Assembly (NCBI GenBank): GCA_003173865.1
Contig: PJMF01000019.1
Location: 6,381-70,380 of the forward strand
DNA length: 64,000 bases
Reading direction: 5' to 3'
Source: Minisyncoccota bacterium
Lineage (GTDB): Bacteria > Patescibacteriota > Microgenomatia > UBA1400 > PJMF01
The notes beneath the pieces are model-generated. The model ran no database searches. It was not told where the DNA came from and was given only the letters and a program-made list of their open reading frames with translations. Each line of letters begins with the position of its first letter. Within the stretch, counting starts at the first letter, position 1. Both the position numbers and the translations under genes were made by a program. Shown here piece after piece: positions 1,229-63,824 of the stretch.

Positions 1229-2644
<1,416 letters not shown>

Positions 2645-2650
2645 GAATTT

Positions 2651-3082
2651 ATGGCACACAAGACACTTCATCTCACGATTGTCACTCAGGATAAGCAACT
2701 GCTTTCGACTGAAGCGGACTCCGTTACCGCTGTAACTTCAGAGGGCGAAATCACGGTGTTACCAGAACATGTTCCGCTTTTTTCTCAGCTGGTGACAGGA
2801 GAACTTGTATATCGTCACGACGGCGAAGAAGATTCACTTGTTGTCTCAAAGGGTTTCATTGATGTGGGTCCTGACAGCACAGTCATAATCATTGTTGATA
2901 GTGCCGTACATGCTCGTGAAATCAGTATTGAAAAAGCAGAAGCAGCAGTAAAGGCTGCCCAGGAAACAATGGCAATGAGTACGACCACCCAACAAGAAAT
3001 GATCATGGCCGAAGCATCTCTGCGCCGTGCGTTGCTCGAAATTAGAGTTGCGCAAAAGACAAAACGAGCTACCCGCGTATAG
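2651..3082 (+). CDS. atpC: F0F1 ATP synthase epsilon subunit
   Basis: 143 aa with N-terminal beta-sandwich-like and C-terminal helical sequence. Immediately downstream of atpD. Confidence 0.85.
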   Translation: MAHKTLHLTIVTQDKQLLSTEADSVTAVTSEGEITVLPEHVPLFSQLVTGELVYRHDGEEDSLVVSKGFIDVGPDSTVIIIVDSAVHAREISIEKAEAAVKAAQETMAMSTTTQQEMIMAEASLRRALLEIRVAQKTKRATRV

Positions 3083-4879: not shown

Positions 4880-7222
4880 ATGCAACAATCTCAGCACTGG
4901 ATCGACAAGCTTGTTAAGGGTATTTTTTCTTGGCAAGAAAAAACACACATTGACCATCTTCACGTTGATGACATGAAAACGCCTTCAGGCCGGGTGCATA
5001 CTGGCGCGCTCAGAGGCGTGATGTTACATGACATCGTGGCCAAAGCTCTTACAGCCGCATCTGATCAAACTATTACAAGTACATACGTCTTCAATGACAT
5101 GGACTCAATGGATGGTTTACCAAGTTACTTAGACGAGAAAGAATACAGCCAGCACATGGGTAAACCGCTGTATAAAATACCTGCTCCACCACTAGAGAAG
5201 TCTGGAATCGATTTTGTGGGAGCCACTGAAGTGGAAAAAGCAAAGTACCAAGCAGCGAAAAATTTTGCTGAGTTTTATGCTTTGGATTTCATAGATGCGT
5301 TTCACAAACTTGGCAGTACGCAACAAATTATTTGGAGTCACGAGTTGTATGAATCTGGTCAAATGAATGAACACATCCAAACAGCTCTAGATAACATCGA
5401 CACAATTCGCCGCGTTTACCAAGAAGTTGCAGACTATCAATTGCCTAAGCAGTGGTTTCCTTTTCAAGTCATTTGTCCGCAGTGCGGTAAGCTGGGGACC
5501 ACACTTACTACGGGGTGGGATGGAAGAATGGTCACGTTTGAGTGTCAAAAAAATAAAGTAACATGGGCTGAAGGATGTGGCTATTCAGGATCTGTTTCAC
5601 CATTTAATGGCACTGGCAAATTACTCTGGAAAGTTGATTGGCCAGCACACTGGAAGTGTCTTGGCGTCACTATCGAAGGCGCAGGCAAAGATCACACATC
5701 TGCTGGCGGCTCGCGTGACATGGCTAATCAACTTATCGACAAAGTTTTTCATGCACCGGTTCCTTTTGATATTCCATACGAATGGATCCTGATTCGCGGG
5801 GCAAAAATGAGTTCAAGCAAAGGAGTTGGAACTTCTGCGCGCGAGTTTGTGGAGTTGTTTCCCGCTGAAGTGGGTCGCTTTCTCTTTGTCAGCCGACTTT
5901 TTAGCCAAGTGATTGATTTTGACCCCCACACAATGGCTATTCCCAATTTATTTGATGATTATGATGCTGGCGCACGCACATATTGGGGCCAATTAGAAGA
6001 AGACTCACGTGCAGGCCGATCCTTTGAGCTTTCTCAAATTGAAAACATACCGTCAGCACACTTTTTGCCTCGTTTTCGTGATGTGGCAACGTGGATGCAG
6101 TATCCAGAAATTGATTTAGTTGCGAAGTTTGCGGAAATCAAGGGCAGTGCATTAACTGCGCAAGAAAAAGCAGTACTTGCGCAACGCAAACACTATGCTC
6201 AGATCTGGATTAATCGGTATGCGCCAGAAGAGTTTCAACTCGGTCCAACTTTGGAAATACCTGAACTTGCCTACACACTCACCAACGAGCAAAAAAAGTA
6301 CTTAGAAGAAATCGAAGTACTTATGAAACCAAAAGAATGGAATGCTGCAGATCTGCAGCAAGCACTCTTTGAACTCGCAAAACAATCGCTTGGTGCTCGT
6401 AAAGGATTTGAAGCAATTTACATCGCTTATCTTGGGAAAAAAGCTGGTCCGCGTGCCGCTTGGTTGCTGTTATCTATGACTGCAGAGTTTCGTCATAAAA
6501 GAATTGCCGAATTATCCTTATCTTCAACGTCAAAAACACCTACTCATTCTGTAGGATTTATTTCTCAAGAAGTTCACGAACAGTTCCCTGGAATGTTTTT
6601 TGCGCAAGTACTCATTAAAAATGTGACGATCCGAAAAACAGAACCTAAGTTAGAGGCACTCAAAAAAGAAGTCACTCAAGCGCTCAACCTTCCAACTGAA
6701 AATATCGGTCAACTCAAACCAATTGAAGCGTATCGAAAATTATTTAAAGCAACGGGCGTTGATTTTCACAAAAAACGACCTTCACCTGAAGCATTACTGC
6801 GCAGGATTTCGCAAGGCAAAACGCTGTACACCATTAATACTGCAGTCGATGCATATAACTTAGCTGTAATTGAAACCGCAATTGGATTAGGTGGTTTTGA
6901 TGCTGACATGCTCAAGTTTCCGGTTACCTTACGCTTTTCCAAAGAAGGCGAGTCATTACTTCTTTTAGGTGATGAAACACCGACATTCACCCGAGCTGGT
7001 GAACTTGTTTACAGTGATCAAGAAAAATTAATTACGATTGATTTAAATTACCGAGATATTTCAAACACAAAAATTACAGAAAAAACCAAGAATATTCTGC
7101 TTTTTGCAGACGGCGCACCTGGGTTGAGTAAAGATGAGGTAGTTGCTGCCTTGCAAAGGGGTGCTTCATATATTCAACAATTTTGCGGTGGTGAAGTAGG
7201 AAAAATAGAAGTAAAGGAGTAG
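4880..7222 (+). CDS. lysS: Lysine--tRNA ligase, class I (archaeal-type), with a ~220-aa C-terminal extension resembling a B3/4 (PheT-like) tRNA-binding/editing domain
   Basis: HIGH-like PSGRVHTGALRG, a Zn-binding CPQCG…C…C segment, WKVDWPAHW…GKDH and KMSSSKG (KMSKS) match the class I LysRS architecture. The C-terminal TLYTINTAVDAYNLAVIETAIGLGGFDADML resembles the B3/4 domain. Confidence 0.85.
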   Translation: MQQSQHWIDKLVKGIFSWQEKTHIDHLHVDDMKTPSGRVHTGALRGVMLHDIVAKALTAASDQTITSTYVFNDMDSMDGLPSYLDEKEYSQHMGKPLYKIPAPPLEKSGIDFVGATEVEKAKYQAAKNFAEFYALDFIDAFHKLGSTQQIIWSHELYESGQMNEHIQTALDNIDTIRRVYQEVADYQLPKQWFPFQVICPQCGKLGTTLTTGWDGRMVTFECQKNKVTWAEGCGYSGSVSPFNGTGKLLWKVDWPAHWKCLGVTIEGAGKDHTSAGGSRDMANQLIDKVFHAPVPFDIPYEWILIRGAKMSSSKGVGTSAREFVELFPAEVGRFLFVSRLFSQVIDFDPHTMAIPNLFDDYDAGARTYWGQLEEDSRAGRSFELSQIENIPSAHFLPRFRDVATWMQYPEIDLVAKFAEIKGSALTAQEKAVLAQRKHYAQIWINRYAPEEFQLGPTLEIPELAYTLTNEQKKYLEEIEVLMKPKEWNAADLQQALFELAKQSLGARKGFEAIYIAYLGKKAGPRAAWLLLSMTAEFRHKRIAELSLSSTSKTPTHSVGFISQEVHEQFPGMFFAQVLIKNVTIRKTEPKLEALKKEVTQALNLPTENIGQLKPIEAYRKLFKATGVDFHKKRPSPEALLRRISQGKTLYTINTAVDAYNLAVIETAIGLGGFDADMLKFPVTLRFSKEGESLLLLGDETPTFTRAGELVYSDQEKLITIDLNYRDISNTKITEKTKNILLFADGAPGLSKDEVVAALQRGASYIQQFCGGEVGKIEVKE

Positions 7223-7224
7223 TT

Positions 7225-7764
7225 ATGAATCAACTTCCGTCTCGCGGACAAAGCGAGGAATTATTACTAAAGTACATGAAAAATCCTGCGTTGTTGAATC
7301 ATTCACGCATGGTCGCTCTCGCCATGGAAGCATACGCACGTACGTTGCAAGAAGATCCTGAACTTTGGTATCAGGCCGGTTTGCTTCATGATCTCGATTG
7401 GGAAATGTTTCCCGATGAACATCCAAATAAAGCTGTCGCTGAATTTTTGAGTGAGTATCCCGAATCACTGAAGAATGCGATTCTCGCCCACGGTCCTGAC
7501 CGAACTGGTAAGCAACCAGAAACGTTGATTGAAAGATATCTTTTTGCGAATGATGAGTTATCTGGATTTCTGAATGCGGTGTCACTGTTGCGTCCGACAA
7601 AGTTCGAGGGTATGGAAGTGAAGTCTGTAAAAAAGAAGTTAAAAGATAAAAATTTCGCGGCAAACGTCAGTCGTGAAGATATTGAGCGTGGTTTTGAGTT
7701 AATTCACAAAACTCCCGACGAACACATCTCATTTTTAATTACTGTCTTTAGTAAACAATCATGA
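7225..7764 (+). CDS. HD-domain phosphohydrolase, YqeK-like (putative Ap4A hydrolase family)
   Basis: 179 aa. The AGLLHDLD HD motif and overall layout resemble the YqeK-type HD proteins. Confidence 0.7.
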   Translation: MNQLPSRGQSEELLLKYMKNPALLNHSRMVALAMEAYARTLQEDPELWYQAGLLHDLDWEMFPDEHPNKAVAEFLSEYPESLKNAILAHGPDRTGKQPETLIERYLFANDELSGFLNAVSLLRPTKFEGMEVKSVKKKLKDKNFAANVSREDIERGFELIHKTPDEHISFLITVFSKQS

Positions 7765-8210
7765 TCACCGCATCTCGTCTTAACGTTGGCGTTTTTGGCT
7801 TAGCAGTAAATAAACAAAAACAGTTTTTGTTGACACAGCGTAATGCACCTGATTCACCAGCGACACACTTGAAGTGGCAAATCCCTGGTGGCGGTTTAGA
7901 AAGTAACGAATCGCCAGAACAAACCTGTTTACGCGAACTCCGTGAAGAAATTGGAGTACAGGCCCAAATTGCTTTTCCTCACCCAATTGCAAGTAACTAT
8001 ATTTGGAGAAAAGATCAAACAAGTGGACAAGAAGACGTGAATTTAATTATTCTAACGTACATTGTAGACATTGGCGAACAAATTCCTTCTGATAAAAACG
8101 ATGCCGAAACACTGGCTTGGCAATGGTACTCACTTGACGAAGTTGAAAGATTAGACACTTTGCCTAACGTTAAAGCAACTATTCGCGCGGCTTTCACGAT
8201 CATTCAATAA
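7761..8210 (+). CDS. NUDIX hydrolase
   Basis: Nudix box GGGLESNESPEQTCLRELREEIGV (GX5EX7REUXEEXGU). 4-nt overlap with the upstream HD gene. Confidence 0.85.
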   Translation: MITASRLNVGVFGLAVNKQKQFLLTQRNAPDSPATHLKWQIPGGGLESNESPEQTCLRELREEIGVQAQIAFPHPIASNYIWRKDQTSGQEDVNLIILTYIVDIGEQIPSDKNDAETLAWQWYSLDEVERLDTLPNVKATIRAAFTIIQ

Positions 8211-13750: not shown

Positions 13751-14137
13751 ATGCAGTCTCGATTGAAGTCATTTTCCGGCACAGTTATTCAGGGCGAACA
13801 AGTTGGCCGGACAATGGGTTTTCCTTCTGCGAATTTTGCACAAAGTCCGGCAGATGGCTCGATGGATCCGGGGGTGTATCTGTGCAGTACTCAACTTTCC
13901 GGTCAAACATACTATGGGTTGGCATACTACGGGCCTCGCTTTGTGCACGGCGAGTATCAAAATACATTTGAAGTCTTTTTTTACGATTTTTCGGGAAATT
14001 TATACGGACAAAAAATCACTGTGAATTTGCATGACTTTATTCGTCGTCCAATTAAATTTGAGTCGCTGGAAGATGTTAAACATCAATTAGAAAAGGATAA
14101 AAAGGTAGGATTAAAAATCATTAAAACGATCGGCTAA
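13751..14137 (+). CDS. Riboflavin kinase (standalone RFK domain)
   Basis: GTVIQGEQVGRTMGFPSANF matches the flavokinase motif G.V..G...GR.LGFPTAN. 128 aa. Confidence 0.8.
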   Translation: MQSRLKSFSGTVIQGEQVGRTMGFPSANFAQSPADGSMDPGVYLCSTQLSGQTYYGLAYYGPRFVHGEYQNTFEVFFYDFSGNLYGQKITVNLHDFIRRPIKFESLEDVKHQLEKDKKVGLKIIKTIG

Positions 14138-28059: not shown

Positions 28060-28539
28060 ATGCAAAATACCACTGAGATCTGTCCAAAGTGTGGTTCACC
28101 ACTGAAAGAACCAGAAGAAACTAGAACTGGTAAGAAACTTCAACGCTGTTCAACTGGTTCTTGGAACGCTCAAACGCGCCAAACTGAAGGCTGTGATTAT
28201 GTCAAATGGCTAACTGATGAGCCAAAACTCCTCGACGAAATGTGTCCAAAATGCGGCTCACCGCTCGTCTTGCAAGTCACACGCACAGGCAAGAAAATGA
28301 AAAAATGTAGCACCGGCGGGTGGGACAGAGAACAACGCGTCGCAACTGGCTGCGACTATGTAGAATGGATGAATGGTTCGACGAAACCGCTCGACGAAGA
28401 CTGTCCTCTTTGCGGCGAGAAACTCGTCTTATTTACCACTGCAAATGGTAAACGAATGAAAAAATGTTCTACGGCAGGCTGGGATCGTGAAATGCGCATC
28501 CCCACTGGCTGCACGTATATCGAATGGCAGAAGGATTAA
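28060..28539 (+). CDS. Protein built of three tandem topoisomerase-type C4 zinc-ribbon repeats
   Basis: Three ~50-aa repeats of the form CP.CGS.L……TG.K..KCSTG.W…….GC.Y.EW, resembling the zf-C4_Topoisom arrangement (CPxCG…C…C). Confidence 0.65.
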   Translation: MQNTTEICPKCGSPLKEPEETRTGKKLQRCSTGSWNAQTRQTEGCDYVKWLTDEPKLLDEMCPKCGSPLVLQVTRTGKKMKKCSTGGWDREQRVATGCDYVEWMNGSTKPLDEDCPLCGEKLVLFTTANGKRMKKCSTAGWDREMRIPTGCTYIEWQKD

Positions 28540-28548
28540 AAATGAAGA

Positions 28549-28649
28549 TTTGCGGGGAGCTTGTGTGTGAAGTCACACTAACAGGCTGAGAGGATAGTGA
28601 AACTATCGACCCATTGAACCTGTTCGGATAATGCCGACGTAGGGAAAAT
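28549..28649 (+). ncRNA. TPP (THI-box) riboswitch
   Basis: GCGGGGAGC…GGCTGAGAGG…ACCC…GAACCTGTTCGGATAATGCCGACGTAGGGAAAAT matches the THI element consensus (GGGG.GC.…CUGAGA…ACCC..GAACCUGAUC.GGAUAAUGCC.GCG.AGGGA). The 3' AGGGA doubles as the RBS for the ATG at 28650. Confidence 0.8.
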
Positions 28650-29516
28650 ATGGGTCAACCTCACGAAGTTTTTGTAGATCGTTTCAATGCTGCGCTCTGC
28701 AAACCACCACTCGCTCATATTCTTTATAACGTAGAAAAAAAGCGTTGGTCAGCACCTTTTTTGAAAGGAATTGTTCATACCAGTCTCCTTTGTGAGCAGC
28801 AACAGATCTGCACACATAACGAAGATCATCTCTTACGCGTGGGGCAAAATACTTTGTTTCTTCATGATCTCTGGCAAAAGCGCCTTGAAAACCTTCTTGC
28901 AGACGAGCTACTGCTCTTTGGCGTCCTCTTACACGATATAGGGTATATTTCGCAAGGATTGATTTGGCAAAATAAATCGGCAATCAATCATCCTGAAAAA
29001 GGAGCTGAGTTACTGGATTTATTGCGGTCGAGTCATTGGATCAAGACTCCAGGACGCGCCGAAGCTCGGGCTATTATTGAAGAGTATGCACACCTTTTCT
29101 TTTTTATTATCTCTTCCGATACCGAGCTCTCTTTAAAATTCGCCCAACATCTACTTGCGTACAAAAAAAACGGATTTCCGATTGGGGAACCCAGTTACAT
29201 CGCCGCACTCAGCATATCACTGGGCGATAAGCTTGATTATTTTCTAGCAGAGAGAGTAAAAAACGTCCCCACACCACCAACTTATCAAGAAAATCCTTAC
29301 TACTTCTTGTGTAAAGCAGTCAAAAATTATCGTTTGCAGGTCGCCAATAATAAGTTGAAGTATATTGCTACTCTGGATACCGATGGTCTGCAATTTAGTA
29401 AGAGAGGAGAGTGGCACGCTAAAACTATTCAAGCAGGCTTTGAAAATATATGGCAACTTGCACACACGTATAGTGAATTACTGGGGATGACGTTTGAAGT
29501 AGTTGAATACAGTTAA
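28650..29516 (+). CDS. HD-domain metal-dependent phosphohydrolase of unknown specificity, TPP-riboswitch-controlled
   Basis: His…HD…His…Asp layout with GVLLHDIGY and INHPEKGAELL. Soluble, 288 aa. Directly preceded by the THI element. Confidence 0.7.
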   Translation: MGQPHEVFVDRFNAALCKPPLAHILYNVEKKRWSAPFLKGIVHTSLLCEQQQICTHNEDHLLRVGQNTLFLHDLWQKRLENLLADELLLFGVLLHDIGYISQGLIWQNKSAINHPEKGAELLDLLRSSHWIKTPGRAEARAIIEEYAHLFFFIISSDTELSLKFAQHLLAYKKNGFPIGEPSYIAALSISLGDKLDYFLAERVKNVPTPPTYQENPYYFLCKAVKNYRLQVANNKLKYIATLDTDGLQFSKRGEWHAKTIQAGFENIWQLAHTYSELLGMTFEVVEYS

Positions 29517-30346
29517 TCCAGATTAAAACTTTCTCTGTCTTTTATTTCTTGAACAATCTTATCGATAATTTCTCGATATGAATACTGCGGCAACTTCAAT
29601 TTTTTTAATCGACCAAGGTCTCCTTCAATAATTGGAGTTGTATCATGAGCATCGAATGGTACAACGCTAACTCCAAACTGGCTTAAAATATCACTAGCAA
29701 TATCAAAACGAGATTTCAGTTCTTGAACTGCAATAGAAATAATTTCATTCCAAATTTCTTTTTGAATAATTATTCTAATCACTTCTGAGATATGACCTAA
29801 ATGAGAAGGTTGGAACTTCCACGATGTATCATATTCAGCCTTCGTTCCCTGATCAAGATTTTTGAGAATACGATTAAACGGGCGATCATTTATCGTGTTG
29901 GGACTCATTCCTATGATCAGTGAAGGACGCAAAACTGCAAATCCGGCTGAAGTACTTTCCACATACTCTTCACTTTGTGCTTTGGTTTTTCCATAAACAT
30001 TAATAGGATTAATAGCCGCGTAAGAAGAAATTAAAATTATTTTTTCTTTGTGTTTGTTTGCCACTGAGACTAAATTTTGTGTGGCTGTTTGGTTTAAAGA
30101 AATTGCTAGCTCTGGATTTGCTTCACACCAGCGCGCATTTGCATTAGCGGCGGCATGAATAATTATTTCAGGTTGAAATTGGCGAACGATATCTTCTAAT
30201 GCTGCAGCATCAGTAATATCTAACTCAACAAAACTTGAGCTAAGCTTGGTACTATGACAAGTTCCAATAACTTCAAAGTCTCTACTTAAATCAAGATAAA
30301 GCCGAGCACCCACGTAGCTACTTGCGCCGGTCAAAAGAATTTTCAT
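29513..30346 (-). CDS. NAD(P)-dependent sugar epimerase/reductase, RmlD-like (dTDP-4-dehydrorhamnose reductase family)
   Basis: A Rossmann GxxGxxG-like MKILLTGASSYVGARL, the catalytic YGKTK (YxxxK) and ~277 aa. 4-nt overlap with the upstream ATP-grasp gene. Confidence 0.75.
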   Translation of the reverse strand: MKILLTGASSYVGARLYLDLSRDFEVIGTCHSTKLSSSFVELDITDAAALEDIVRQFQPEIIIHAAANANARWCEANPELAISLNQTATQNLVSVANKHKEKIILISSYAAINPINVYGKTKAQSEEYVESTSAGFAVLRPSLIIGMSPNTINDRPFNRILKNLDQGTKAEYDTSWKFQPSHLGHISEVIRIIIQKEIWNEIISIAVQELKSRFDIASDILSQFGVSVVPFDAHDTTPIIEGDLGRLKKLKLPQYSYREIIDKIVQEIKDRESFNLD

Positions 30347-46706: not shown

Positions 46707-47672
46707 CTAGTCAAGATGTTTGCGGTGAAATGCTTTCAAAGCGGCATGAACGATGTGAGGGACATCCATTCCGTACTTGATGAGCAGCTCCTCAGGTTTT
46801 CCTGATTCCCCAAAATGGTCAGGCATACCAACAAACTCAATTGGCACAGGACAGTTTTGAGCTGTGAACTCTGCCACCGTGCTACCTACACCGCCGTACA
46901 TTTGATGTTCTTCAACAGTGACAACAGCCTTTGTCTTATTTAACGAAGTAAGCAACGTCTTTTCATCTAACGGTTTAATTGTGTGGAGATTAATGACTTC
47001 TGCACTGACATTCTTTTTTGCGAGCACTGCTGCCGCTTGTAAAACCTTGCCCAGAAGTGGTCCACTTGCAATAAGAGTCACATCTTTACCTTTTTTCATG
47101 ACCTGAGCTCGACCAACTTCAAATGGTGTGTCACGAGTTGTAATAAGTGGGGAGGGAAAACGAGAAAGGCGAATATACACAGGTCCTACGTATTCAGCTG
47201 AAGCTACAGTAGCCTTTTCTGCTTCAAGCGCATCACACGGATAAATGACCGTGAGATTTGGTAAAACCCGCGTCATCGCAATATCCTCTAAGGCTTGATG
47301 GGTCGCACCATCTTCGCCAACGGTTAAACCGGTGTGCCCACCAATAATTTTGACGTTTGCCTGCGAGTAACACACACTCACTCTGAGTTGATCCCAGCTG
47401 CGGCCAGGGCTAAACACCGCATAACTGGCCACAAATGGCACTTTCCCAGCAAGTGCTAACCCCGCACCGATCCCCATGAGATTCTGCTCTGCCACACCAA
47501 CTTCAATGAAGCGGTCCGGAAATTCTTGTGCGAAAAGGCGAGACCTTGTCGATTCAGCAAGGTCAGCAGTGAGAACTACAACATTCCGATTCTTCCGTCC
47601 TGCTTTGACAACTCCTTCCCCGTAGCCATCTCGCGTTGCTTTGTGTGGTTGTGAAACATTATCCTTCTGCAC
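46707..47672 (-). CDS. Transketolase, C-terminal subunit (pyrimidine-binding and C-terminal domains) of a split transketolase
   Basis: …EFPDRFIEVGVAEQNLMGIGAGLALAGK…, 321 aa. Overlaps the N-terminal subunit gene by 14 nt. Confidence 0.9.
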   Translation of the reverse strand: MQKDNVSQPHKATRDGYGEGVVKAGRKNRNVVVLTADLAESTRSRLFAQEFPDRFIEVGVAEQNLMGIGAGLALAGKVPFVASYAVFSPGRSWDQLRVSVCYSQANVKIIGGHTGLTVGEDGATHQALEDIAMTRVLPNLTVIYPCDALEAEKATVASAEYVGPVYIRLSRFPSPLITTRDTPFEVGRAQVMKKGKDVTLIASGPLLGKVLQAAAVLAKKNVSAEVINLHTIKPLDEKTLLTSLNKTKAVVTVEEHQMYGGVGSTVAEFTAQNCPVPIEFVGMPDHFGESGKPEELLIKYGMDVPHIVHAALKAFHRKHLD

Positions 47673-48510
47673 GAATTTTTCCTCCCAAACTACGTAACTC
47701 TTGTAAAGCTAATTGGGCTTGTGCCGGGTCGGGCGCTTTACCATGCCATTCTGGTTTCCACTGCATAAACTCAACTCCCTTTCCCGGAATGGTGTGCGCA
47801 ATGATTGCCACTGGTTGCTCGAAAATCGCCACAGCTTGATGACAGGCACCAATAATGGCTTGCATGTTATGTCCATCGATTTCGATCACATGCCAACCAA
47901 AAGCTTCATACTTCTTGCGAAACGGTTCCAGTGGCATCACGTCTTCTGTGTAGCCGTCAATTTGAATATTATTTCGATCAATAATCGCAGTGAGATTGGC
48001 AATTTTCTTTTTGCCGGCAAATAAAATAGCTTCCCAAGTTTGTCCTTCGTCATGTTCACCATCACTCATCATGCAGTAGATTTGGTTATTTTTTCCATCT
48101 ATTTTTGCTGCCAATGCCATGCCAATTGCTTGGGATAATCCTTGACCCAATGGACCACTTGAGTTTTCTAGTCCTGGCAATGCCAAGCGATGTGGATGGC
48201 CTTGGAGAGGAGAACCGAGTTTGCGAAGCGTTAATAACAGTGATCGCGAGAAGTATCCTGCGTGTGCGAGCGCCGCATACAGTACTGGACAAATATGACC
48301 ATTGGATAAAACCAATTTATCGCGGTCTGACCATTGAGGATTGTGGGGATCGTGTTTTAACACTGCAAAGTACAGCGCCGTAAAAACATCAGCCATTCCC
48401 AGTGCACCTGCCGCGTGTCCCGACCCTGCCAAACTAAGCATTTTGACAATATCTTCACGAATCAAAAGGGCGCGCTGTTCTAGGTCAGTAAGAGATAATG
48501 GTGCAGTCAT
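47659..48510 (-). CDS. Transketolase, N-terminal subunit (TPP-binding domain)
   Basis: The TPP-binding GDG motif region …CMMSDGEHDEGQTWEA… and …GHPHRL…GPLGQGLS…. Confidence 0.9.
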   Translation of the reverse strand: MTAPLSLTDLEQRALLIREDIVKMLSLAGSGHAAGALGMADVFTALYFAVLKHDPHNPQWSDRDKLVLSNGHICPVLYAALAHAGYFSRSLLLTLRKLGSPLQGHPHRLALPGLENSSGPLGQGLSQAIGMALAAKIDGKNNQIYCMMSDGEHDEGQTWEAILFAGKKKIANLTAIIDRNNIQIDGYTEDVMPLEPFRKKYEAFGWHVIEIDGHNMQAIIGACHQAVAIFEQPVAIIAHTIPGKGVEFMQWKPEWHGKAPDPAQAQLALQELRSLGGKIRAEG

Positions 48511-48534: not shown

Positions 48535-51500
48535 TTACCCTTGTCTCTCCAACTTATTCCACCCTACGTAATTGCCTTGAACTGCATTCATCACTGACTT
48601 CACGACGACGTAGTACATGAGTTGTCTGTAGAGAAGACGCTGCCAAAACAACCACAGTAACAATCGATAGTCTTCTTTTTTTTCTAACAAAAACGCTAGG
48701 AGCGCCGCACCAAAATCAATTCCCACGAACAACAAATAAAAGAAAAGGATACGTTGAAAGCCACCATATGCCCAATCTTCAGGATGTTGCAGCTGGGTTA
48801 AAAATCCAGTCACCAAGGAAGACACCACCAGAAAGTCCATGAGAGGCGAAATAAATGGAAAGAAAACTTGGAAAATCAGCACGTTTGGTAACGCAATGTA
48901 TCCCAGTTTTTTATTCTTGCTCGTTAAAAACGAAAACCGATGTTTCCACACAACTTGCAAGGTGCCAAATGTCCACCGGAAACGCTGTTTTAAGAAACTT
49001 CCTATCGTAACTGGCGCTTCTGTGTACGCAATCGCTTCATCCTCATATTCTACAAGGTATCCACGCTCTAAAATACGTAACGTCAAGTCAGTATCTTCCG
49101 CCAAGGTATCTCCCACAAAGCCACCACTTTGTTTGACTAAAGTAGTATGCCAAGCCCCAATTGCGCCGGGAACCACAGTAATACAATTTAAAAAGGCAAA
49201 TGCCTGACGATCAAGATTTTGACTGGTAATATACTCAAGCGCTTGCCACTTCGTCAAAAAATTTTGACGATTTCCGACTTTTGCATTTCCCGCCACTGCG
49301 CCAATGCGCGGATTCACAAAGTGTCGCACTAACTTGGCAATCGCATCTTTATGCAAGCGTGTGTCAGCATCCATCGCAACGATAATTTCTGACTTCGCTT
49401 TGCTCAACGCAAAGTTCAAGGCAGCAGCTTTGCCCTCATTATGAATTTTATATAACTGGACTAGAGGATGCTGGCTAAATGTGTGTTGCAATCTTTGATA
49501 CGTGCGATCACTCGAACCATCATCTACGACAATCACTTTATACTTTGCGTACGTTGAACGTAAAACAGAGTGGACAGTTGCCACAATTACTTTTTCCTCG
49601 TTGAATGCTGGAATTAAGACCGTGACAGTCGGCTGATAGCAATCATCAAATTTTTTCAAGGAATTCCGTCGTGTATTCACTACTGCTAAGGCACCCAAAA
49701 AGAGTAAGCGCGTCGTTCCTAAAACAATACCCAGTAAAAAGAGTACCGGAATTAAAATTCCCACCCAGCGAAAAACGTTGAAACCAATTGTAAATGTTTG
49801 CGCTTGGAGTTTTTGATCTGAAGTTGCTAGGGGCATCACGTCACTGCGTTTTAAACCAATTAAGTCTGCAATATTCACAAACGTATAGCCATCTTCACGG
49901 AGTTTGTCGATAATTTGCGGTAAAGCTGCTACCGTCTGTGAACGATCGCCGCCGCCATCATGCAACAAAACAATATTTCCCTCACCATTTTCAACTTCGT
50001 CGATCGTTGTTTGCACAATTTGATCGACACCTGGGCGCTTATAATCCTTGGGATCAATATTCATTCCCACCGTGTAGTAACCCAACTTACTGGTATATAC
50101 AAGCGGCCTAACTTGGTCAGATGTTTCCGGTTCCACATCTTCGGCATAGGGTGGACGGAATAATAGAGTGTCACGACCCAAGCGGCTTTCGAATAAACGC
50201 TCGGTTGAGTTAATTTCTAATGCCCATTGCTGCGAGGGAATGGAAGAAAGATTCGGATGCGTAAACGTATGATTCCCAACTTCATGATTTTCGTCAAACA
50301 TCCGTTGCAGTATCTGTGGATATAAATCCGCCTGAGAACCAATCACAAAAAAAGTCGCAGGGACTTGCTTTTCTTTCAAAACATCTAAAATGCGCGGCGA
50401 GTAGTAAGGATCGGGACCATCATCAAAAGTTAACACTACTTTTTTTTCTTGCTGGCCGCCCCAACGAGTGATGATATATGGTAGCGGCGGAGAAGTTAAT
50501 GTGCTCGTCATGATTAAGCCTAAGGCATTGTCGTATCCCACTTGGCGAGTTCCGTCTTGGGGAGTAGCCGTGACTTGCAAAATCTCTCCTTTGCCTTGAT
50601 AGTGCACATCGTAACCATAATGCATTTGTTGCAGTTGCTGAGCCAAGTTACTGTCGATTTTTGTTCGACCAGCCGTCACATTCCAAATCGAGGGATCTTC
50701 GGTACCCAGCCGCCAAATAGCCCATCCACGAGGCTTGTAAAGCCGACTGGTTTGTAGTTGATTAAAAAACGTTACACCATCGAGATACCACACCGTATGC
50801 TGGGTTCCATTCGCATCTTTATACTGAAAACTCGGGTTGAGCAGAGTAGAGTCAAGAGCTGGCTCGAGACTCGCACTTTGCACGCGCTGCATGACTTGTT
50901 GAAAAGAAAGTACTTCGGCGCGTGAACCTTTATCTATCCAGTCATACCCATATGTGCCCAGTGCAATAACGTATTTATTAGGCGGCAAATCAGCTAAATC
51001 TTTTTGCAACTGCGCATTAAACCAACCTTGGGAGGCAACCGGACCAGCTTCACTCGCATCCCAATGTTCGTCGTACATCATGAAAATCAAGTAATCCACC
51101 GTTTGGCTCAACTCTTTGTAGTTGAAGTCGTCATCGTCCGCTGGGACAGCCTCAGTAACCTGCAGATGTGCAGCATGAAAATTTGCCGCCAGTTCTTGCA
51201 TGTAGATCTGAAGAAAAGGTTGATCTTGGGGAGCGACATTTTCATAATCGATCGTGATACCACCTGCGTTACGCGCTAAAACATATTGCTTAAGGAAAAA
51301 AATATTTTGAAATCGACTTTGCGGATCGCGTAACATTTTACTTAATCGTTTTTGATCCCAGTCTTGGGTTTCCCTATTGAAGTTATTTACTAATGGAAGA
51401 ATTTGCAGTGTCGGTTTACGCTGTTGAACCAGATCAAGTACCTGCTTTTCTCTATCAAGGTCATCAATCGTCAATTGATCGGGTTGATCACTCAAGTGCA

Positions 51501-51933
51501 ACCACTCGGGCATGAGGATATCAAGCTCTCCGATATTTCTTTTGAGTGAAGTAAAACTTGTGTCGTCCCAGTTGACGTAAAAACCGATGATCTGAGAGTT
51601 TGTTTGTGTAGATGAAGCAGAAGTCCCCCACTTTTTGCGTTGATTGGTTTTAAGGTAAGTGAGCAGTTGCTCTTTGGTTTGTTGATACGTCACTTCCTTC
51701 CGCTGAGAGGTATTTTTGGGTTGCACGGCAATCAAGTGATGGGTTTGACTGAATGTCTGTACGGATTGTAAAGCAAGGCTAGGCAACTGCGGATTTTTAA
51801 TTAAGTTGTAAAGAAATACTGCACCGACCACACACGCCCATGCCCCCAAACTCTTGAGGAACCAGGAAATCCACCACCATCTTCGCTTGTGAGGGTCGTA
51901 AAAGACTGGCTTTGTCTCAAGCTTTTTCTTCAT
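48535..51933 (-). CDS. Tri-domain membrane enzyme: N-terminal TM, GH18-like domain, CE4 (NodB) polysaccharide deacetylase, then a processive GT2 synthase with C-terminal TM helices
   Basis: GH18-like GGITIDYE (D.D.E-type) and MMYDEHW. CE4 VVLTFDDGPDPYYSPRILDVLKEK…HTFTHP. GT2 LIPAFNEE, DDGSSD, DAD, GDTLAEDTDLT (T/AED) and QRFRW (QxxRW). Start chosen at the ATG with an AGGA RBS (51933); the ORF opens at 51954 with TTG. Confidence 0.8.
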   Translation of the reverse strand: MKKKLETKPVFYDPHKRRWWWISWFLKSLGAWACVVGAVFLYNLIKNPQLPSLALQSVQTFSQTHHLIAVQPKNTSQRKEVTYQQTKEQLLTYLKTNQRKKWGTSASSTQTNSQIIGFYVNWDDTSFTSLKRNIGELDILMPEWLHLSDQPDQLTIDDLDREKQVLDLVQQRKPTLQILPLVNNFNRETQDWDQKRLSKMLRDPQSRFQNIFFLKQYVLARNAGGITIDYENVAPQDQPFLQIYMQELAANFHAAHLQVTEAVPADDDDFNYKELSQTVDYLIFMMYDEHWDASEAGPVASQGWFNAQLQKDLADLPPNKYVIALGTYGYDWIDKGSRAEVLSFQQVMQRVQSASLEPALDSTLLNPSFQYKDANGTQHTVWYLDGVTFFNQLQTSRLYKPRGWAIWRLGTEDPSIWNVTAGRTKIDSNLAQQLQQMHYGYDVHYQGKGEILQVTATPQDGTRQVGYDNALGLIMTSTLTSPPLPYIITRWGGQQEKKVVLTFDDGPDPYYSPRILDVLKEKQVPATFFVIGSQADLYPQILQRMFDENHEVGNHTFTHPNLSSIPSQQWALEINSTERLFESRLGRDTLLFRPPYAEDVEPETSDQVRPLVYTSKLGYYTVGMNIDPKDYKRPGVDQIVQTTIDEVENGEGNIVLLHDGGGDRSQTVAALPQIIDKLREDGYTFVNIADLIGLKRSDVMPLATSDQKLQAQTFTIGFNVFRWVGILIPVLFLLGIVLGTTRLLFLGALAVVNTRRNSLKKFDDCYQPTVTVLIPAFNEEKVIVATVHSVLRSTYAKYKVIVVDDGSSDRTYQRLQHTFSQHPLVQLYKIHNEGKAAALNFALSKAKSEIIVAMDADTRLHKDAIAKLVRHFVNPRIGAVAGNAKVGNRQNFLTKWQALEYITSQNLDRQAFAFLNCITVVPGAIGAWHTTLVKQSGGFVGDTLAEDTDLTLRILERGYLVEYEDEAIAYTEAPVTIGSFLKQRFRWTFGTLQVVWKHRFSFLTSKNKKLGYIALPNVLIFQVFFPFISPLMDFLVVSSLVTGFLTQLQHPEDWAYGGFQRILFFYLLFVGIDFGAALLAFLLEKKEDYRLLLWLFWQRLLYRQLMYYVVVKSVMNAVQGNYVGWNKLERQG

Positions 51934-52044
51934 AAACATCCTATAAGTGTTCAAGTATTATACCGCAAAAAAGCCTAGAATAGGGTAATCTAAAATGTCC
52001 CTTCACGTCCAGATGCTTATGACTTATACTCAAGGCACGTCTGT

Positions 52045-52842
52045 ATGGCAGTACAAGCCACTTCTTCCCCAACCATTCGTATTCCCACTAAGAATAACCC
52101 TTTTCTCGCCACCGCCACCGAAGTGATCAATAGCGATGAAGAAATTTTAACCTTATGGAAAGTTGCCAATGTGAACGCCATTAACCGAATGGGGTTTAGC
52201 GATCATGGGCCGGTGCATGTCCAGATCGTGGCGAATATTGCCCTTCGTCTGGCGCGCTTATTATTAAAGCACAATGTTGAGATGTCTATTGTCAAGGATT
52301 TTGAGTTAACAAACCATCACGCTGAGCTGGTGATTTTCCTTGCGAGTTTATTTCATGATTTAGGTATGTCAGTGCATCGTGCAAACCACGAGGAATTCAG
52401 TCTCTTTATTGCTAACTCGTTGTTACATAAAATTGTTGATTTCTTGCCAACGGTCGAACGGACCATTGTTATTTCAGAAGTTCTCCACGCCATTATCAGT
52501 CATCGTCGGGCTGGTCATCCGGTGACGATTGAAGGCGGAATTGTCCGTGTTGCCGATGCCCTTGACATGAGTAGTGGCCGTTCACGAATTCCGTTCACAC
52601 AAGGACAAGTAAACATTCACTCTGTATCGGCACTCGCGATTGAAAAAGTTGAGATTAAAGAAGGCAATGTCAAACCAATCGAAATTAATATTATTATGAC
52701 CAACACCGCCGGAATTTTTCAAGTAGACGAACTTCTCAAAGAGAAACTTTCCGAGTCTCACATCGAGAAATATCTGCAAGTAAAAGCCTTCTTAAAAGAA
52801 GCAAAAAGAACAAAGTTGATTACCGAGTTTATAGTTGGCTAA
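52045..52842 (+). CDS. HD-domain phosphohydrolase (265 aa)
   Basis: HGPVHVQIVANIALRLA…LASLFHDLGMSVHR…, an HD-domain metal-ligand pattern. Confidence 0.7.
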   Translation: MAVQATSSPTIRIPTKNNPFLATATEVINSDEEILTLWKVANVNAINRMGFSDHGPVHVQIVANIALRLARLLLKHNVEMSIVKDFELTNHHAELVIFLASLFHDLGMSVHRANHEEFSLFIANSLLHKIVDFLPTVERTIVISEVLHAIISHRRAGHPVTIEGGIVRVADALDMSSGRSRIPFTQGQVNIHSVSALAIEKVEIKEGNVKPIEINIIMTNTAGIFQVDELLKEKLSESHIEKYLQVKAFLKEAKRTKLITEFIVG

Positions 52843-54663: not shown

Positions 54664-55155
54664 TTATTTTAACTTTATATTGTTCATGCTTAAAAGCATT
54701 TTCAGATCCAGAAGTTGTTGATGTTGTTGCTCTGACTCGGCCTGGGTAAATATCGTGTATGCGGCAGCAGGACACTCCGGTGGAATTGTCATAATGACCC
54801 CTAATGCTCCTCGAAAGAGGTAAACGACTTGACGGATATTTCTAATGATGTTGTCCCTTGCCTGAACATTTCCTGTAACACTATTGACCATCTCTCGAAG
54901 TTCTGGTTGAGGTAAAGGACTGTTTTTAATGATTAGAACAGGTGCGTACTCGACAAGTTCGAGACCTAAACTCACTGCTCTATCGAGGGCGGCAGTGACA
55001 AGTTGTTGCCTTTGTTCCTCGCTAATATTCGCTATCGTATCCCAATATTTTTGATCAAGTGGAGGGAGCTCATTGCCTTTTAAAATCCAGCAACTCACGT
55101 CACTCCCTTGTTCCGGTCGAGGTTGAGTTTCGATCATAGGGAGAGAAGAGTACAT
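54664..55155 (-). CDS. Hypothetical protein (163 aa)
   Basis: ORF only. Confidence 0.45.
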   Translation of the reverse strand: MYSSLPMIETQPRPEQGSDVSCWILKGNELPPLDQKYWDTIANISEEQRQQLVTAALDRAVSLGLELVEYAPVLIIKNSPLPQPELREMVNSVTGNVQARDNIIRNIRQVVYLFRGALGVIMTIPPECPAAAYTIFTQAESEQQHQQLLDLKMLLSMNNIKLK

Positions 55156-59444: not shown

Positions 59445-59536
59445 AATCTGGGGCAGATAGGAGATATCCTATCAGGAAAATTTTTTATTTTCACAATCCT
59501 TTTTATAGTGATTGTTTTTTGATAAAATGCAAACGT

Positions 59537-60046
59537 ATGAAAATTACTCTTTACATGGCGATAACCATAGATGGATTTATTGCGAAAAGTGATGGAAATT
59601 CTGATTGGGTTTCGCCGGTTGATACAAAAAATTTTGAAACTGCTATCTCAGAACATAGGAACATCATTTTAGGAAGTAGGACTTATAAACAGTATTTAGG
59701 TGAACTGTATCCGGTAAAAGGAGTCAACAATATTGTTATTTCGTCTGATAACACCTCAGTTAAACCAGCAGAAGGTGTTTTTGTTTTGCCTCCAAACCCA
59801 GATCTGGTAATTTCTTTCTTGGAAGAAAAAAGACAAGAAAAAGCACTGCTAATAGGGGGTGGCAAAACAAATGGAATGTTTTTTCAAGCAAACCTTATTG
59901 ACGAAATACGATTAGTGGTACACCCCATTGCTTTTGGGTCAGGAATTAAGCTCTTTGATGGTGTTGAGGTAGAAAGAAATTTTGAACTGACTGATGTCCA
60001 AAAACTTCAAGAAGGGCTAGTCCAATTAAAATATAAAAAATCATAG
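59537..60046 (+). CDS. Dihydrofolate-reductase-like (RibD C-terminal domain family) protein
   Basis: KITLYMAITIDGFIA…D and …LLIGGGKTNGMFFQANLIDEIRLVVHPIAFGSGIKLF match the RibD_C/DHFR-like pattern. Confidence 0.75.
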   Translation: MKITLYMAITIDGFIAKSDGNSDWVSPVDTKNFETAISEHRNIILGSRTYKQYLGELYPVKGVNNIVISSDNTSVKPAEGVFVLPPNPDLVISFLEEKRQEKALLIGGGKTNGMFFQANLIDEIRLVVHPIAFGSGIKLFDGVEVERNFELTDVQKLQEGLVQLKYKKS

Positions 60047-60048
60047 AT

Positions 60049-60759
60049 ATGGTTAGCACCAACAAACAAGAAAGACAATTTTTGCCAGCAAAAGAAGTTA
60101 TCTTTCAAGGAAAACAGATAATTATCACTGGTGGTGGTTCAGGGATCGGCAAAGCGTTAGCTGAACGCTTTTCTCAGCTCGGAGCAAATGTCACTACTTT
60201 AGATATTGTACGAACGGATCAATTGCCCGTTAGTATTTCTCAAATTCTTGCTGATGTGAGAGATAAAGACCAGCTAGCATCTCAGATAAATAATCAAAAT
60301 GTTGATATTTTGGTTATAGCAGCAGGTGTTACGTCCCAAACAAGTGAACCCACAAATGACGAACAACAATTGATGGAATCAGTCAACGTCACTGGTGTGC
60401 AAAATACTCTTGATGCTTTTGGTAGACTTTTACCCGAAGGTAGCAAAGTTATCTATATTGGTTCCGATGATCCTCCCAAGGCCTTTTATGCAGACACAAA
60501 AAAAAGAGGCGCTCAACTAGTAAAGAATTTTTCTGCCACTCATCCAGAACTAAGCGTTAGATTAGTATATTTAGGCCCTGTAAGAACACCTCTATTTGAG
60601 AAAGGTAAACCTCCTGAGGTGATTGAGAGGATAGCCATGAATGTTGGTCTTTACGAACCGTCTGAATTTGCAGAAGAACTCGTTGATGATCTTGCAGATC
60701 AATCAAATGCCGACAGCAATCTGCAAGAAAAAGTCATGTATAAAAAAATAAAAAAGTAA
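60049..60759 (+). CDS. Short-chain dehydrogenase/reductase (SDR)
   Basis: TGGGSGIGKALAERF cofactor motif. 236 aa. Confidence 0.8.
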   Translation: MVSTNKQERQFLPAKEVIFQGKQIIITGGGSGIGKALAERFSQLGANVTTLDIVRTDQLPVSISQILADVRDKDQLASQINNQNVDILVIAAGVTSQTSEPTNDEQQLMESVNVTGVQNTLDAFGRLLPEGSKVIYIGSDDPPKAFYADTKKRGAQLVKNFSATHPELSVRLVYLGPVRTPLFEKGKPPEVIERIAMNVGLYEPSEFAEELVDDLADQSNADSNLQEKVMYKKIKK

Positions 60760-60785: not shown

Positions 60786-61214
60786 TTACTTCCAAAGAGA
60801 AAATTTCTTAGTCAATTCTCGTAGTTGATCGTTTTCTCCAAAAAAACAAATGCCATAATATTCTAATTCTGCCTCTGGTGTTTCTTTTGTTCTTTGTTTT
60901 TGTTCGGCAAAGGTACCAACTGTCATTGTGCTTGTAAAATCATTAAAAGTGATGTTGTTTTCAATCAGGGTGTTGCGCAACGTGCGAATTTTATTTGAAT
61001 TGTCAGCAGCGAGTACGATAAATGGGTTATCTGAAATGCTTTTATGTTCTCCACCATCTTTGTCAAAATAACTATCAAACCTCAAGGGTTCTTTATCGGT
61101 AAACAATGCCGTAAAGCCTGCTGACATATGTGCTAAAGCGTTCATCAATTTACCGGTTTCAATTTTTTTGTTTAATACAGCTACAAATCTATGGGTAGTT
61201 GGTTGATTGTTCAT
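60786..61214 (-). CDS. Hypothetical protein, DUF2000-like
   Basis: HRFVAVLNKKIETGKLMNALAHMSAGF resembles the DUF2000 N-terminus. 142 aa. Confidence 0.45.
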   Translation of the reverse strand: MNNQPTTHRFVAVLNKKIETGKLMNALAHMSAGFTALFTDKEPLRFDSYFDKDGGEHKSISDNPFIVLAADNSNKIRTLRNTLIENNITFNDFTSTMTVGTFAEQKQRTKETPEAELEYYGICFFGENDQLRELTKKFSLWK

Positions 61215-62224: not shown

Positions 62225-63805
62225 ATGGATACTGATGAACCAAAACTTCGCTATGTTATTTATGCTCGCAAGTCTACTGATGATCCTCAACGGCAACTCA
62301 AATCTACGGATGACCAAATAGACGAGTGCCAAAAAATGGCAACGAGATTAAATCTCCATGTTATTGGTAATCCGATTATTGAAAAAAGATCAGCCAAAAA
62401 ACCTGGGAGACGACCTCTCTTTAGAAAAATGCTCGCAGATATTCAGCAAGGCAAGATTGATGGCATTATTGCGTGGCATCCTGATCGGTTAGCCAGAAAT
62501 ATGAAGGAGGGAGGCGAAATTATTGATATGGTAGATGAAGGCTATATCAAGGACATGCAGTTTGTTATGCACCATTTTTCAACAGATGCCAACGGCAAAA
62601 TGCTTTTGGGAATGGCTTTTGTATTATCCAAGCAATACTCCGACAAACTGTCAGATGATGTGACCAGAGGTGTGAGGCATCACCATCAAGACCAAGGTCA
62701 GTCACCGGCCGCAAAGCATGGTTATATCAGAGACGAAAATGGCCAGTATCAACCAGATGGGAAAAACTTTGAATTGATTTGCGATGCTTGGCAAATGCGA
62801 AAATCTGGCACATCCCTTGAAGATATTGTGTTGTACATGAATTCCAACGGGTATGGCCGAAAAGTGAAGTCATCAGGAAAAGTTGTTCGGATGACCAAAC
62901 AAATTTTAAGTGGCATCTTCAAAGATCCTTTTTACTATGGCATTCTCATTCAAGCTGGCCAGCCAGCAGATTTGAGACTTATTTATGATAATTTCATTGC
63001 GGCGATAACTGAGCAAGACTATTTAGAAGTTCAAGCACTATCTGGCAGGAGAATAAATCCATACAAAGGCAAACGCCACACCTATTTACCGCTCCGAATG
63101 ATGGTCAACTGTGACTTTTGTGGCATGCACATGTATGCGGGTGTTTCTGTTGGACATAGTAAAAAGTATCTTTTCTACCGATGTGGCAACAAGTTTTGTA
63201 CACGAAAGAAGAAATCGGTTCGCGCAAAAGTCATTTTTGACTTTATTTACGAGTTTTTTGACGAAGGGTTACACTTTACCGAGGCTGACTACCATAAATA
63301 CTACGGTAGCCTGACAAAAATTACTCAACAAAAAAGAGACCAGTTACAGTTTGATCTGTACAGCAAGCAAGCGTTACTTAAAGACATCCGTGGCAAAATT
63401 AAAGATCTCTCTTTCAAATTACTGGACAATCCAAACTTATCAGAAACCACAATTAAGGTTGCAAATGAGAAACAAGTTGAGCTTCAAGAACAAGAAATAG
63501 AGTTAGAAGCTGAAATAGATAAACTTAAGCAAAAAATGAAAGACCCAGAAGCAGAAAAAATCAGCATTACCCAGTTTTTGAACTTATCAAAAAATGCCGC
63601 TACGATCGTCAAATCAGGCGATGTGGTGGTCAAAGATGCTATTTCCCGAATTATCTTTTTGAACTTTTCTGTAGATGAAGAAAAAGTGGCTTCGTATCGG
63701 CTTAAACCACCATTTGATGAACTGCTCAAAACCCGCTCTGTCCTACTTAGTCGGGGAAACAGGACTCGAACCTGCGGCCTTACGCTCCCAAAGCGTACGC
63801 TCTAG
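62225..63805 (+). CDS. Large serine recombinase (resolvase-type catalytic domain, recombinase domain, Zn ribbon, coiled coil)
   Basis: RYVIYARKSTDDPQ (catalytic Ser region), …GIIAWHPDRLARN…, a Cys cluster CDFCGMHMY…YRCGNKFC and a C-terminal coiled coil. The last ~18 codons are read out of the convergent tRNA-Pro sequence, so the true stop may lie earlier. Confidence 0.85.
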   Translation: MDTDEPKLRYVIYARKSTDDPQRQLKSTDDQIDECQKMATRLNLHVIGNPIIEKRSAKKPGRRPLFRKMLADIQQGKIDGIIAWHPDRLARNMKEGGEIIDMVDEGYIKDMQFVMHHFSTDANGKMLLGMAFVLSKQYSDKLSDDVTRGVRHHHQDQGQSPAAKHGYIRDENGQYQPDGKNFELICDAWQMRKSGTSLEDIVLYMNSNGYGRKVKSSGKVVRMTKQILSGIFKDPFYYGILIQAGQPADLRLIYDNFIAAITEQDYLEVQALSGRRINPYKGKRHTYLPLRMMVNCDFCGMHMYAGVSVGHSKKYLFYRCGNKFCTRKKKSVRAKVIFDFIYEFFDEGLHFTEADYHKYYGSLTKITQQKRDQLQFDLYSKQALLKDIRGKIKDLSFKLLDNPNLSETTIKVANEKQVELQEQEIELEAEIDKLKQKMKDPEAEKISITQFLNLSKNAATIVKSGDVVVKDAISRIIFLNFSVDEEKVASYRLKPPFDELLKTRSVLLSRGNRTRTCGLTLPKRTL

Positions 63806-63824
63806 CCATCTGAGCTATTCCCCG
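63751..63824 (-). tRNA. tRNA-Pro (anticodon TGG)
   Basis: Manual fold: acceptor CGGGGAA/TTCCCCG, D-arm GCTC-AGATGGCTA-GAGC, anticodon arm TACGC-TTTGGGA-GCGTA, T-arm GCAGG-TTCGAGT-CCTGT, discriminator A. Confidence 0.85.

Follow-up and report, generated by a model that had tools for sequence, protein, structure and literature searches.

The stretch of DNA analysed here, 64,000 nucleotides of contig PJMF01000019.1 from a Minisyncoccota bacterium (hereafter the window), contains a thiamine pyrophosphate (TPP) riboswitch, or THI element, that runs directly into the start of a gene encoding a 288-aa protein of the HD superfamily. On balance, we favour the reading that this single gene, as a representative of a small unnamed HD branch, is dedicated to the TPP regulon and encodes a phosphohydrolase of thiamine salvage. 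The riboswitch itself is an ordinary, well-supported member of the Rfam family RF00059, real beyond reasonable doubt, and the gene behind it is the new part: it belongs to a rare and unannotated enzyme family whose readable members are all linked to a TPP riboswitch, and three of them to a thiamine pyrophosphokinase (TPK) gene.

The Rfam covariance-model scan of the whole window detected one riboswitch, a match to RF00059 on the plus strand at 28543-28663 that covers the full model (positions 1-105) with 61.4 bits (E 1.3e-9; gathering score 54.3 bits). An earlier note on this DNA, made from the letters alone, had called a canonical THI element here and proposed the Rfam search as a check; the score above threshold bears this out, and the motifs quoted in the note are present (CUGAGA at 28586-28591, ACCC at 28609-28612 and GAACCUGUUCGGAUAAUGCCGACGUAGGGA at 28616-28645). 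The leader and the gene behind it are organized as follows.

28543-28663 (+): TPP aptamer (THI element), full RF00059 match with model flanks (Rfam, and covariation over ten loci)
28548-28552 (+): 5' strand of P1, AUUUG, pairing weakly with 28647-28651 (two of the five P1 pairs non-canonical in the Rfam alignment)
28553-28613 (+): P2-P3 arm, the pyrimidine-sensor helix (Rfam alignment)
28608-28614 (+): GACCCAU, which includes the 3' strand of P2 and can pair at every position with AUGGGUC at 28650-28656, the start codon plus four nucleotides (ligand-free minimum free energy (MFE) fold)
28619-28643 (+): P4-P5 arm, the pyrophosphate-sensor helix (Rfam alignment)
28641-28645 (+): AGGGA, earlier proposed as a Shine-Dalgarno (SD) sequence; aptamer core, with AGG as the 3' strand of P4 and GA in the junction (Rfam and ten-locus alignments)
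28647-28651 (+): 3' strand of P1, AAUAU, overlapping the first two nucleotides (AU) of the start codon (Rfam alignment)
28650-28652 (+): ATG start codon, 4 nt past the aptamer GGGA, with an in-frame TAA at 28629-28631
28650-29516 (+): open reading frame (ORF) of the 288-aa HD-superfamily protein, the sole gene under the riboswitch (ORF list, Pfam, phmmer, family alignment and AlphaFold2)

In the P2-P3 arm, P2 pairs GGG (28554-56) with CCC (28610-12), P3 pairs 28559-63 with 28582-86 and carries an extra GUGUG/CACAC extension, and a second hairpin is formed by GAUAG (28593-97) and CUAUC (28603-07). The other arm consists of P4, CCUG (28619-22) with UAGG (28640-43), and P5, UCGG (28624-27) with CCGA (28634-37). 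The conserved ligand-contact core is present, with CUGAGA in J3-2 (28586-91) and GAACCUG...CGUAGGGA at 28616-45. P1 can also be drawn in another register, AUUU/AAAU (28548-51 with 28646-49), that gives four A-U pairs.

The ATG at 28650 is the only possible start of the gene, since no start codon follows the in-frame stop codon at 28629-28631, and the motif conserved in the family starts at residue 8 of the 288-aa product. The THI element thus leads into the start codon as the earlier note had described, the ATG lying 4 nt after the aptamer core. The next gene (29513-30346) is on the minus strand, convergent with the HD gene, which is therefore monocistronic, so that the riboswitch would control one gene only. 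Upstream, a gene on the plus strand (28060-28539) encodes a 159-aa protein with three C4 zinc ribbon repeats of the Topoisomerase-I type (CPxCG...C..GC) and ends 8 nt before P1; the interval from this gene to the aptamer yielded no strict sigma-70 promoter.

The protein family is small. An exhaustive phmmer search against 1.84 billion cluster representatives recovered 31 representatives at E<=1e-3, 23 of them at E<=1e-10. A word-indexed search of 5.8 billion proteins returned the query alone, and three proteins only when the family alignment was used; a search of genome and metagenome contigs with six family sequences gave no further loci, and a cluster look-up of the family returned no names. 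The linkage survey covered the DNA of nine of the 31 representatives (P0003, P0004, P0005, P0006, P0008, P0009, P0010, P0012 and P0017). In all nine, a TPP aptamer immediately precedes the gene in the same orientation, which brings the count to ten loci out of ten when the window is included. Eight of the nine homologue aptamers score above the gathering score, at 55-70 bits, and one below.

L002: RF00059, 69.6 bits
L004: RF00059, 68.0 bits
L011: RF00059, 64.7 bits
L013: RF00059, 62.8 bits
L016: RF00059, 61.9 bits
L010: RF00059, 60.4 bits
L012: RF00059, 59.2 bits
L005 / L007: RF00059, 55.1 bits
L008 / L009: RF00059, 47.1 bits, below the gathering score (E 1.3e-6)

Among the ten HD proteins, pairwise identity is only 22-42% (mean 29%), indicating that the linkage was kept over a long divergence. 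Two more distant members outside these nine loci, P0021 and P0027, have gaps of riboswitch size upstream. We consider family-wide linkage to the riboswitch very nearly certain, and the family appears, from its gene neighbourhoods, to be a dedicated member of the TPP regulon across these relatives.

Comparison of the ten aptamers supports the predicted structure. CUGAGA and GAACCUG are invariant, and AGGGA is kept in all but the sub-threshold L008, which has GGAAA. In helices P2 to P5, 94.7% of the cells are paired and 10 of the 23 pairs show compensatory double changes, including all six pairs of the second hairpin and two of the four P5 pairs. The covariation score is 0.449, compared with 0.172 in shuffles (none of 500 as high) and at most 0.153 in slid controls.

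In L010, L013 and L016, the gene that directly precedes the riboswitch encodes a TPK, recognized by the Pfam domains TPK_catalytic (PF04263) and TPK_B1_binding (PF04265). These three TPKs are 47-48% identical to each other whereas their HD neighbours share only 23-24% identity, which suggests that the TPK-riboswitch-HD arrangement is old. The earlier note had proposed the HD gene as a guilt-by-association candidate for thiamine salvage and asked whether homologues elsewhere are linked to riboswitches; the nine aptamers and the three adjacent TPK genes strengthen that proposal. No thiamine gene is present in seven of the ten loci. In L012, a 187-aa P-loop kinase of the PRK/uridine-kinase family (2152-2715, plus strand) occupies the slot upstream of the riboswitch that TPK fills elsewhere. 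In L002 / L014 (contig CAZIZQ010000003.1, from a metagenome-assembled genome titled 'uncultured Gammaproteobacteria bacterium'), adjacent RibD_C and short-chain dehydrogenase genes are found, like those at 59519-60759 in the window.

Known TPP regulons consist essentially of thiamine biosynthesis genes (more than 65% in most lineages) and thiamine transporters (about 30% on average), and the survey that reports this does not mention phosphohydrolases (PMC3766115). An HD phosphohydrolase therefore falls outside the usual regulon, as the earlier note had remarked, and a gene linked to this riboswitch is very likely thiamine-related. Our literature searches gave no description of the HD family, and those of full texts nothing linking an HD-domain protein or a phosphohydrolase to a TPP riboswitch.

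The 288-aa protein has a single Pfam match, HD (PF01966), with 22.0 bits and E 2e-4, a score exactly equal to the cut-off (22); residues 59-140 are matched by positions 3-76 of the profile, and 9 of 25 family members match the profile at E<=0.01. NCBIfam gave no match above cut-off, sequence and profile searches against the PDB with this protein gave nothing significant, and neither Pfam nor NCBIfam matched it to the HAD family. In the 25-member alignment, D96, Y99, H114, R202, P209 and Y217 are invariant, and C54, H56, H60, N67, H95, G98, D193, D196, N215, Y227 and W255 are at least 90% conserved. These positions reproduce the H...HD...(H)...D arrangement seen at the metal sites of HD proteins and add a family-specific C-x-H-x3-H motif. 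The codons of these residues are located as follows.

28809-28829 (+): C54, H56 and H60 of the C-x-H-x3-H motif, H60 being the first metal-binding His of the HD site (alignment at least 90%, HD profile)
28932-28937 (+): CAC GAT, the H95-D96 dyad of the HD site (D96 invariant, H95 at least 90% in the alignment)
28989-28991 (+): H114 of the 'NH-x-E/K' motif, aligned with the second-metal His of PhnZ and TmpB (invariant in the alignment; profile search)
29226-29237 (+): D193-K-L-D196 (ADKxDYF), with the distal Asp of the HD site (alignment at least 90%)

AlphaFold2 applied to the family alignment predicted with high confidence (pLDDT 91.9, pTM 0.91) a core of helices and, C-terminal to it, an alpha/beta subdomain (residues ~224-286). 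When this model was compared with PDB structures by Foldseek, ranks 1-8 all went to HD-type phosphohydrolase folds (those of the PPX C-terminal domain and of phosphodiesterases); SAMHD1, OxsA and YfbR follow at lower ranks, with a few unrelated folds between them (zinc transporters and a phospholipase C). No membrane-like segment was detected (maximum 19-residue hydropathy 1.57). The soluble HD-domain protein of the earlier note is thereby recovered, with its Pfam match at the cut-off and H60, H95-D96, D193 and D196 conserved at 90-100%. It is a real and divergent HD-superfamily protein, with a confidently predicted fold, of an unnamed, fast-evolving family.

Two further HD loci were seen in the window. 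The first (52045-52842, plus strand) encodes a 265-aa protein (Pfam HD, 29.4 bits) that is distantly related to the riboswitch-linked family (hhalign E 1e-4, probability 56%, 151 columns), with H-G-x-x-H, HDxG...NH-E and ADxxD in common; its gene is not preceded by a riboswitch, and neither NCBIfam nor the PDB gave a relative. The second (7225-8210, plus strand) combines a 179-aa HD protein of the HDIG type, unrelated to the riboswitch-linked family, with a 149-aa NUDIX hydrolase whose gene overlaps it by 4 nt, a pair that suggests a small nucleotide-housekeeping operon.

As for the mode of control, the earlier note had assumed that P1 sequesters AGGGA as a Shine-Dalgarno sequence. This part is not supported: AGG is the 3' strand of P4, which belongs to the invariant core of the aptamers that reach the threshold, and P1 has only three or four A-U pairs. 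AGGGA as a true SD sequence was rejected as unsupported, being aptamer core in a window in which SD use is near background. An SD-like 4-mer precedes 9 of 52 window ORFs (background 9.7%), and in 18 of the 52 the end of a -10-like hexamer lies 3-12 nt upstream of the start codon (background 10%); the examples examined for such hexamers include the starts at 4880, 9193, 18229, 31774 and 43259 and that of the minus-strand ORF 48535-51954. These counts suggest an SD-poor genome with widespread leaderless or very short-leader mRNAs. Hexamers of the -10 type were also seen by eye, uncounted, near start codons in homologous loci.

A separate expression platform is missing in the window, in L012 and in L016, where 2-4 nt separate GGGA from the AUG. 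In the window, the leader folds into the TPP aptamer and the start codon lies inside the 3' strand of P1, so that the TPP-locked three-way junction would occlude the initiation region and repress translation; the ribosome likely needs a single-stranded start region because the genome is SD-poor. The translational repression by TPP advanced in the earlier note would most likely take the form of start-codon occlusion of this kind, which secondary-structure modelling does not by itself predict. Two other homologues have a different anatomy, with intrinsic terminators between aptamer and gene (L004, 1308-1325; L010, 879-902). When these transcripts are folded up to the terminator loop, the 3' strand of the aptamer P4/P5 pairs with the 5' strand of the terminator. 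This is a classical antiterminator, which forms only when the aptamer is not locked by its ligand, and therefore follows OFF logic. From these two platforms, it is highly likely that the gene is expressed when TPP is low, and the enzyme would then be made when the cofactor is scarce. Modelling of start-codon accessibility was rejected as a basis for choosing between ON and OFF, as its directions are inconsistent across the ten leaders, and the terminator/antiterminator anatomy was used instead.

Six homologous leaders have a spacer between aptamer and AUG, and in five of these a run of CCCC lies 6-12 nt before the start codon, at the usual SD position; it is absent from the other genes of these loci.

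L002, 2970-3000: CCCC leader
L004, 1355-1380: CCCC leader
L005, 2975-3000: CCCC leader
L010, 905-920: CCCC leader
L013, 2160-2185: CCCC leader
L011, ~1828-1831: CUCC instead

In MFE folds, CCCC pairs with the aptamer 5' GGGG (P2 strand) in L004, L005, L010 and L013, and not in L002. It may be a sequestor/anti-sequestor acting on G-rich starts (AUGGGG in L002, AUGG in L010), for which the modelling is inconsistent.

The HD chemistry, the OFF regulation and the TPK gene adjacent in three of the ten loci point to a phosphatase. No thi biosynthesis gene was seen in the homologue loci or the window, and together with the HD metal site, expression at low TPP and TPK adjacency, this makes a phosphatase giving free thiamine the simplest reading. 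Such an enzyme would hydrolyse a phosphate ester in thiamine salvage, turning thiamine monophosphate (TMP) or another ester into free thiamine, which the pyrophosphokinase would then convert into TPP. Organisms relying on TPK rather than on TMP kinase need a step from TMP to thiamine. Overall, the enzyme is likely a thiamine-related phosphohydrolase. That it is specifically a TMP phosphatase, a substrate that we infer, is a more tentative proposal. We are just as hesitant about the joint picture, in which an unrecognised salvage phosphatase would convert TMP or imported thiamine phosphates into thiamine in TPK-only bacteria, under a riboswitch that buries the start codon in an SD-poor, largely leaderless system.

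The content of the window agrees with two further statements of the earlier note. The split transketolase is confirmed at 46707-48510, so that the window encodes a TPP-dependent enzyme; and no thi biosynthesis, ThiT-like or other thiamine-transporter family is found among the Pfam matches of 50 ORFs with a length of 120 aa or more (a scan that did not include 60786-61214 and 54664-55155).

Several points weigh against a salvage phosphatase under an OFF switch. The substrate is pure inference, and tblastn with three TPK sequences found no TPK in the 64-kb window. TMP phosphatases of plants and some bacteria are reportedly HAD enzymes, so that an HD enzyme would be a non-homologous replacement. 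Sequence gives a marginal HD assignment and the Foldseek matches are weak (E of at least 8.7e-3, TM 0.3-0.4), while the extra conserved residues C54, H56 and H114 and the weak profile matches to TmpB and PhnZ leave room for non-phosphatase chemistry. On the RNA side, Rfam marks non-canonical pairs in the short P1 of the window, and P1 is likewise weak or unclear in L010, L012 and L016. Furthermore, the modelled probability that the start codon is unpaired is 0.05 in the ligand-free leader of the window and 0.54 with the aptamer enforced, owing to the 7-nt complement, and the change in accessibility differs in direction among the ten leaders. The perfect pairing of GACCCAU (28608-14) with AUGGGUC (28650-56) in the ligand-free MFE fold, with this rise in accessibility, would fit an ON switch, in which the start is hidden without TPP and freed by it, the enzyme then being a TPP or TMP hydrolase that limits excess cofactor. 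We regard such a switch as highly improbable: the complement is missing in L012 and L016, which share the architecture of the window, L004 and L010 have classical OFF platforms, and the aptamer is transcribed and folded before AUGGGUC emerges. We know of no established bacterial TPP riboswitch of the ON type.

Other enzymatic roles have to be weighed against the release of free thiamine. The same nine-out-of-nine linkage would suit another thiamine-related ester: the enzyme could clear damaged or antivitamin diphosphates (oxy-, oxo- or methoxy-thiamine pyrophosphate), convert thiamine triphosphate (ThTP) or adenosine-ThTP into TPP, or dephosphorylate imported hydroxymethylpyrimidine phosphate (HMP-P) or thiazole phosphate (THZ-P). 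The HD superfamily includes pyrophospho- and triphosphohydrolases, such as SAMHD1 and OxsA, both among the fold matches, and damage pre-emption in thiamine metabolism is said to be carried out by Nudix enzymes. We nevertheless consider these substrates unlikely, as TPK adjacency points to free thiamine as the needed product, ThTP pools are tiny, and salvage of HMP-P or THZ-P needs ThiD, ThiM and ThiE, none of which appeared in any locus or in the window. A non-phosphohydrolase that regenerates a usable thiamine moiety, for example a mixed-valent di-iron oxygenase (as PhnZ, TmpB and MIOX) or a hydrolase of a thiamine breakdown product, seems more unlikely still. TmpB (E 0.27) and PhnZ (E 0.48) are among only three weak profile matches to solved structures, over the HD...H segment, and the potential ligands C54, H56 and H114 and the family-specific C-terminal subdomain could be read in the same sense; however, these matches lack significance, the H, HD, H, H, D set of six ligands that marks the HD oxygenases is incomplete, with no conserved His between H114 and D193, and the top eight fold matches, like most of those below, are phosphohydrolases. 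Finally, HD proteins are mostly nucleotide-directed, and the seven loci without a thiamine gene might indicate a function unrelated to thiamine (nucleotide or signalling-nucleotide hydrolysis) that is tied to TPP as a growth or energy signal. This is very improbable given riboswitch linkage in all ten loci at such low protein identity, the recurrence of the TPK-riboswitch-HD arrangement and the almost exclusive presence of thiamine biosynthesis and transport genes in TPP regulons (PMC3766115).

Elsewhere in the window, a 128-aa stand-alone riboflavin kinase (13751-14137, plus strand; Flavokinase domain only, without an FAD-synthetase domain) again points to a lifestyle of cofactor salvage. A class I lysyl-tRNA synthetase of 780 aa (4880-7222, plus strand) has an unusual architecture, with tRNA-synt_1f joined to a C-terminal B3_4 domain. 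The minus strand encodes a 1139-aa fusion (48535-51954) of a glycoside hydrolase of family 18, a polysaccharide deacetylase and a chitin-synthase-like family-2 glycosyltransferase. At the edge of the window, a large serine recombinase (62225-63805, plus strand; Resolvase and Recombinase domains) abuts tRNAs at 63751-63824 and 63859-63940 on the minus strand, a site that may be the boundary of an integrated element.

Most thiamine transporters and salvage enzymes that were not obvious have come from gene discovery guided by riboswitches. Judged by its conserved context, the HD family is a strong candidate for an undescribed step of vitamin B1 salvage. If it is a thiamine-phosphate phosphatase, it would fill a pathway hole for thiamine auxotrophs without TMP kinase, would improve the metabolic reconstruction of uncultivated cofactor-scavenging bacteria and would give the HD superfamily a new class of substrate. 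The leader would be an example of compact riboswitch control without an expression platform in a genome that barely uses SD sites.

Among known TPP riboswitches, that of Escherichia coli thiM acts on translation and that of Bacillus subtilis tenA on transcription. The riboswitch of the window shares with both the P2-P5 helices of the aptamer, the pyrimidine-sensor arm with CUGAGA and the pyrophosphate-sensor arm with CG...AGGGA. It differs from them by having no separate expression platform, a very weak P1 and a start codon inside the P1 3' strand, and its control cannot be an SD/anti-SD exchange of the thiM type because the host genome is SD-poor. The leaders of L004 and L010 use terminator/antiterminator control, as do Bacillus TPP riboswitches.

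The protein shares the H...HD...D ligands of HD-domain phosphohydrolases such as YfbR, OxsA, SAMHD1 and the PPX C-terminal domain, and its predicted helical fold has its best matches among this type, but it differs from them by its C-x-H-x3-H motif, its own C-terminal alpha/beta subdomain, its Pfam score at the threshold and TM values of 0.3-0.4. The action of YfbR on deoxynucleoside monophosphates would be a chemical analogue of the proposed hydrolysis of the TMP phosphomonoester, as both involve a heterocycle-bearing alcohol. With the HAD TMP phosphatases (Arabidopsis TH2, and bacterial enzymes clustered or fused with thiamine genes), the family would share the proposed role and has the same kind of gene-clustering evidence; fold and superfamily are unrelated (HAD versus HD), so that a functional analogy is proposed here and not membership. 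Several thiamine genes, namely ThiT/YuaJ, YkoEDC, ThiXYZ, PnuT, CytX, ThiW and TenA, were first found by THI-element linkage, and the same logic applies to the HD family, an uncharacterised family consistently preceded by a TPP riboswitch. Those families are transporters or enzymes of pyrimidine and thiazole salvage, whereas the HD family is neither a biosynthesis gene nor a transporter.

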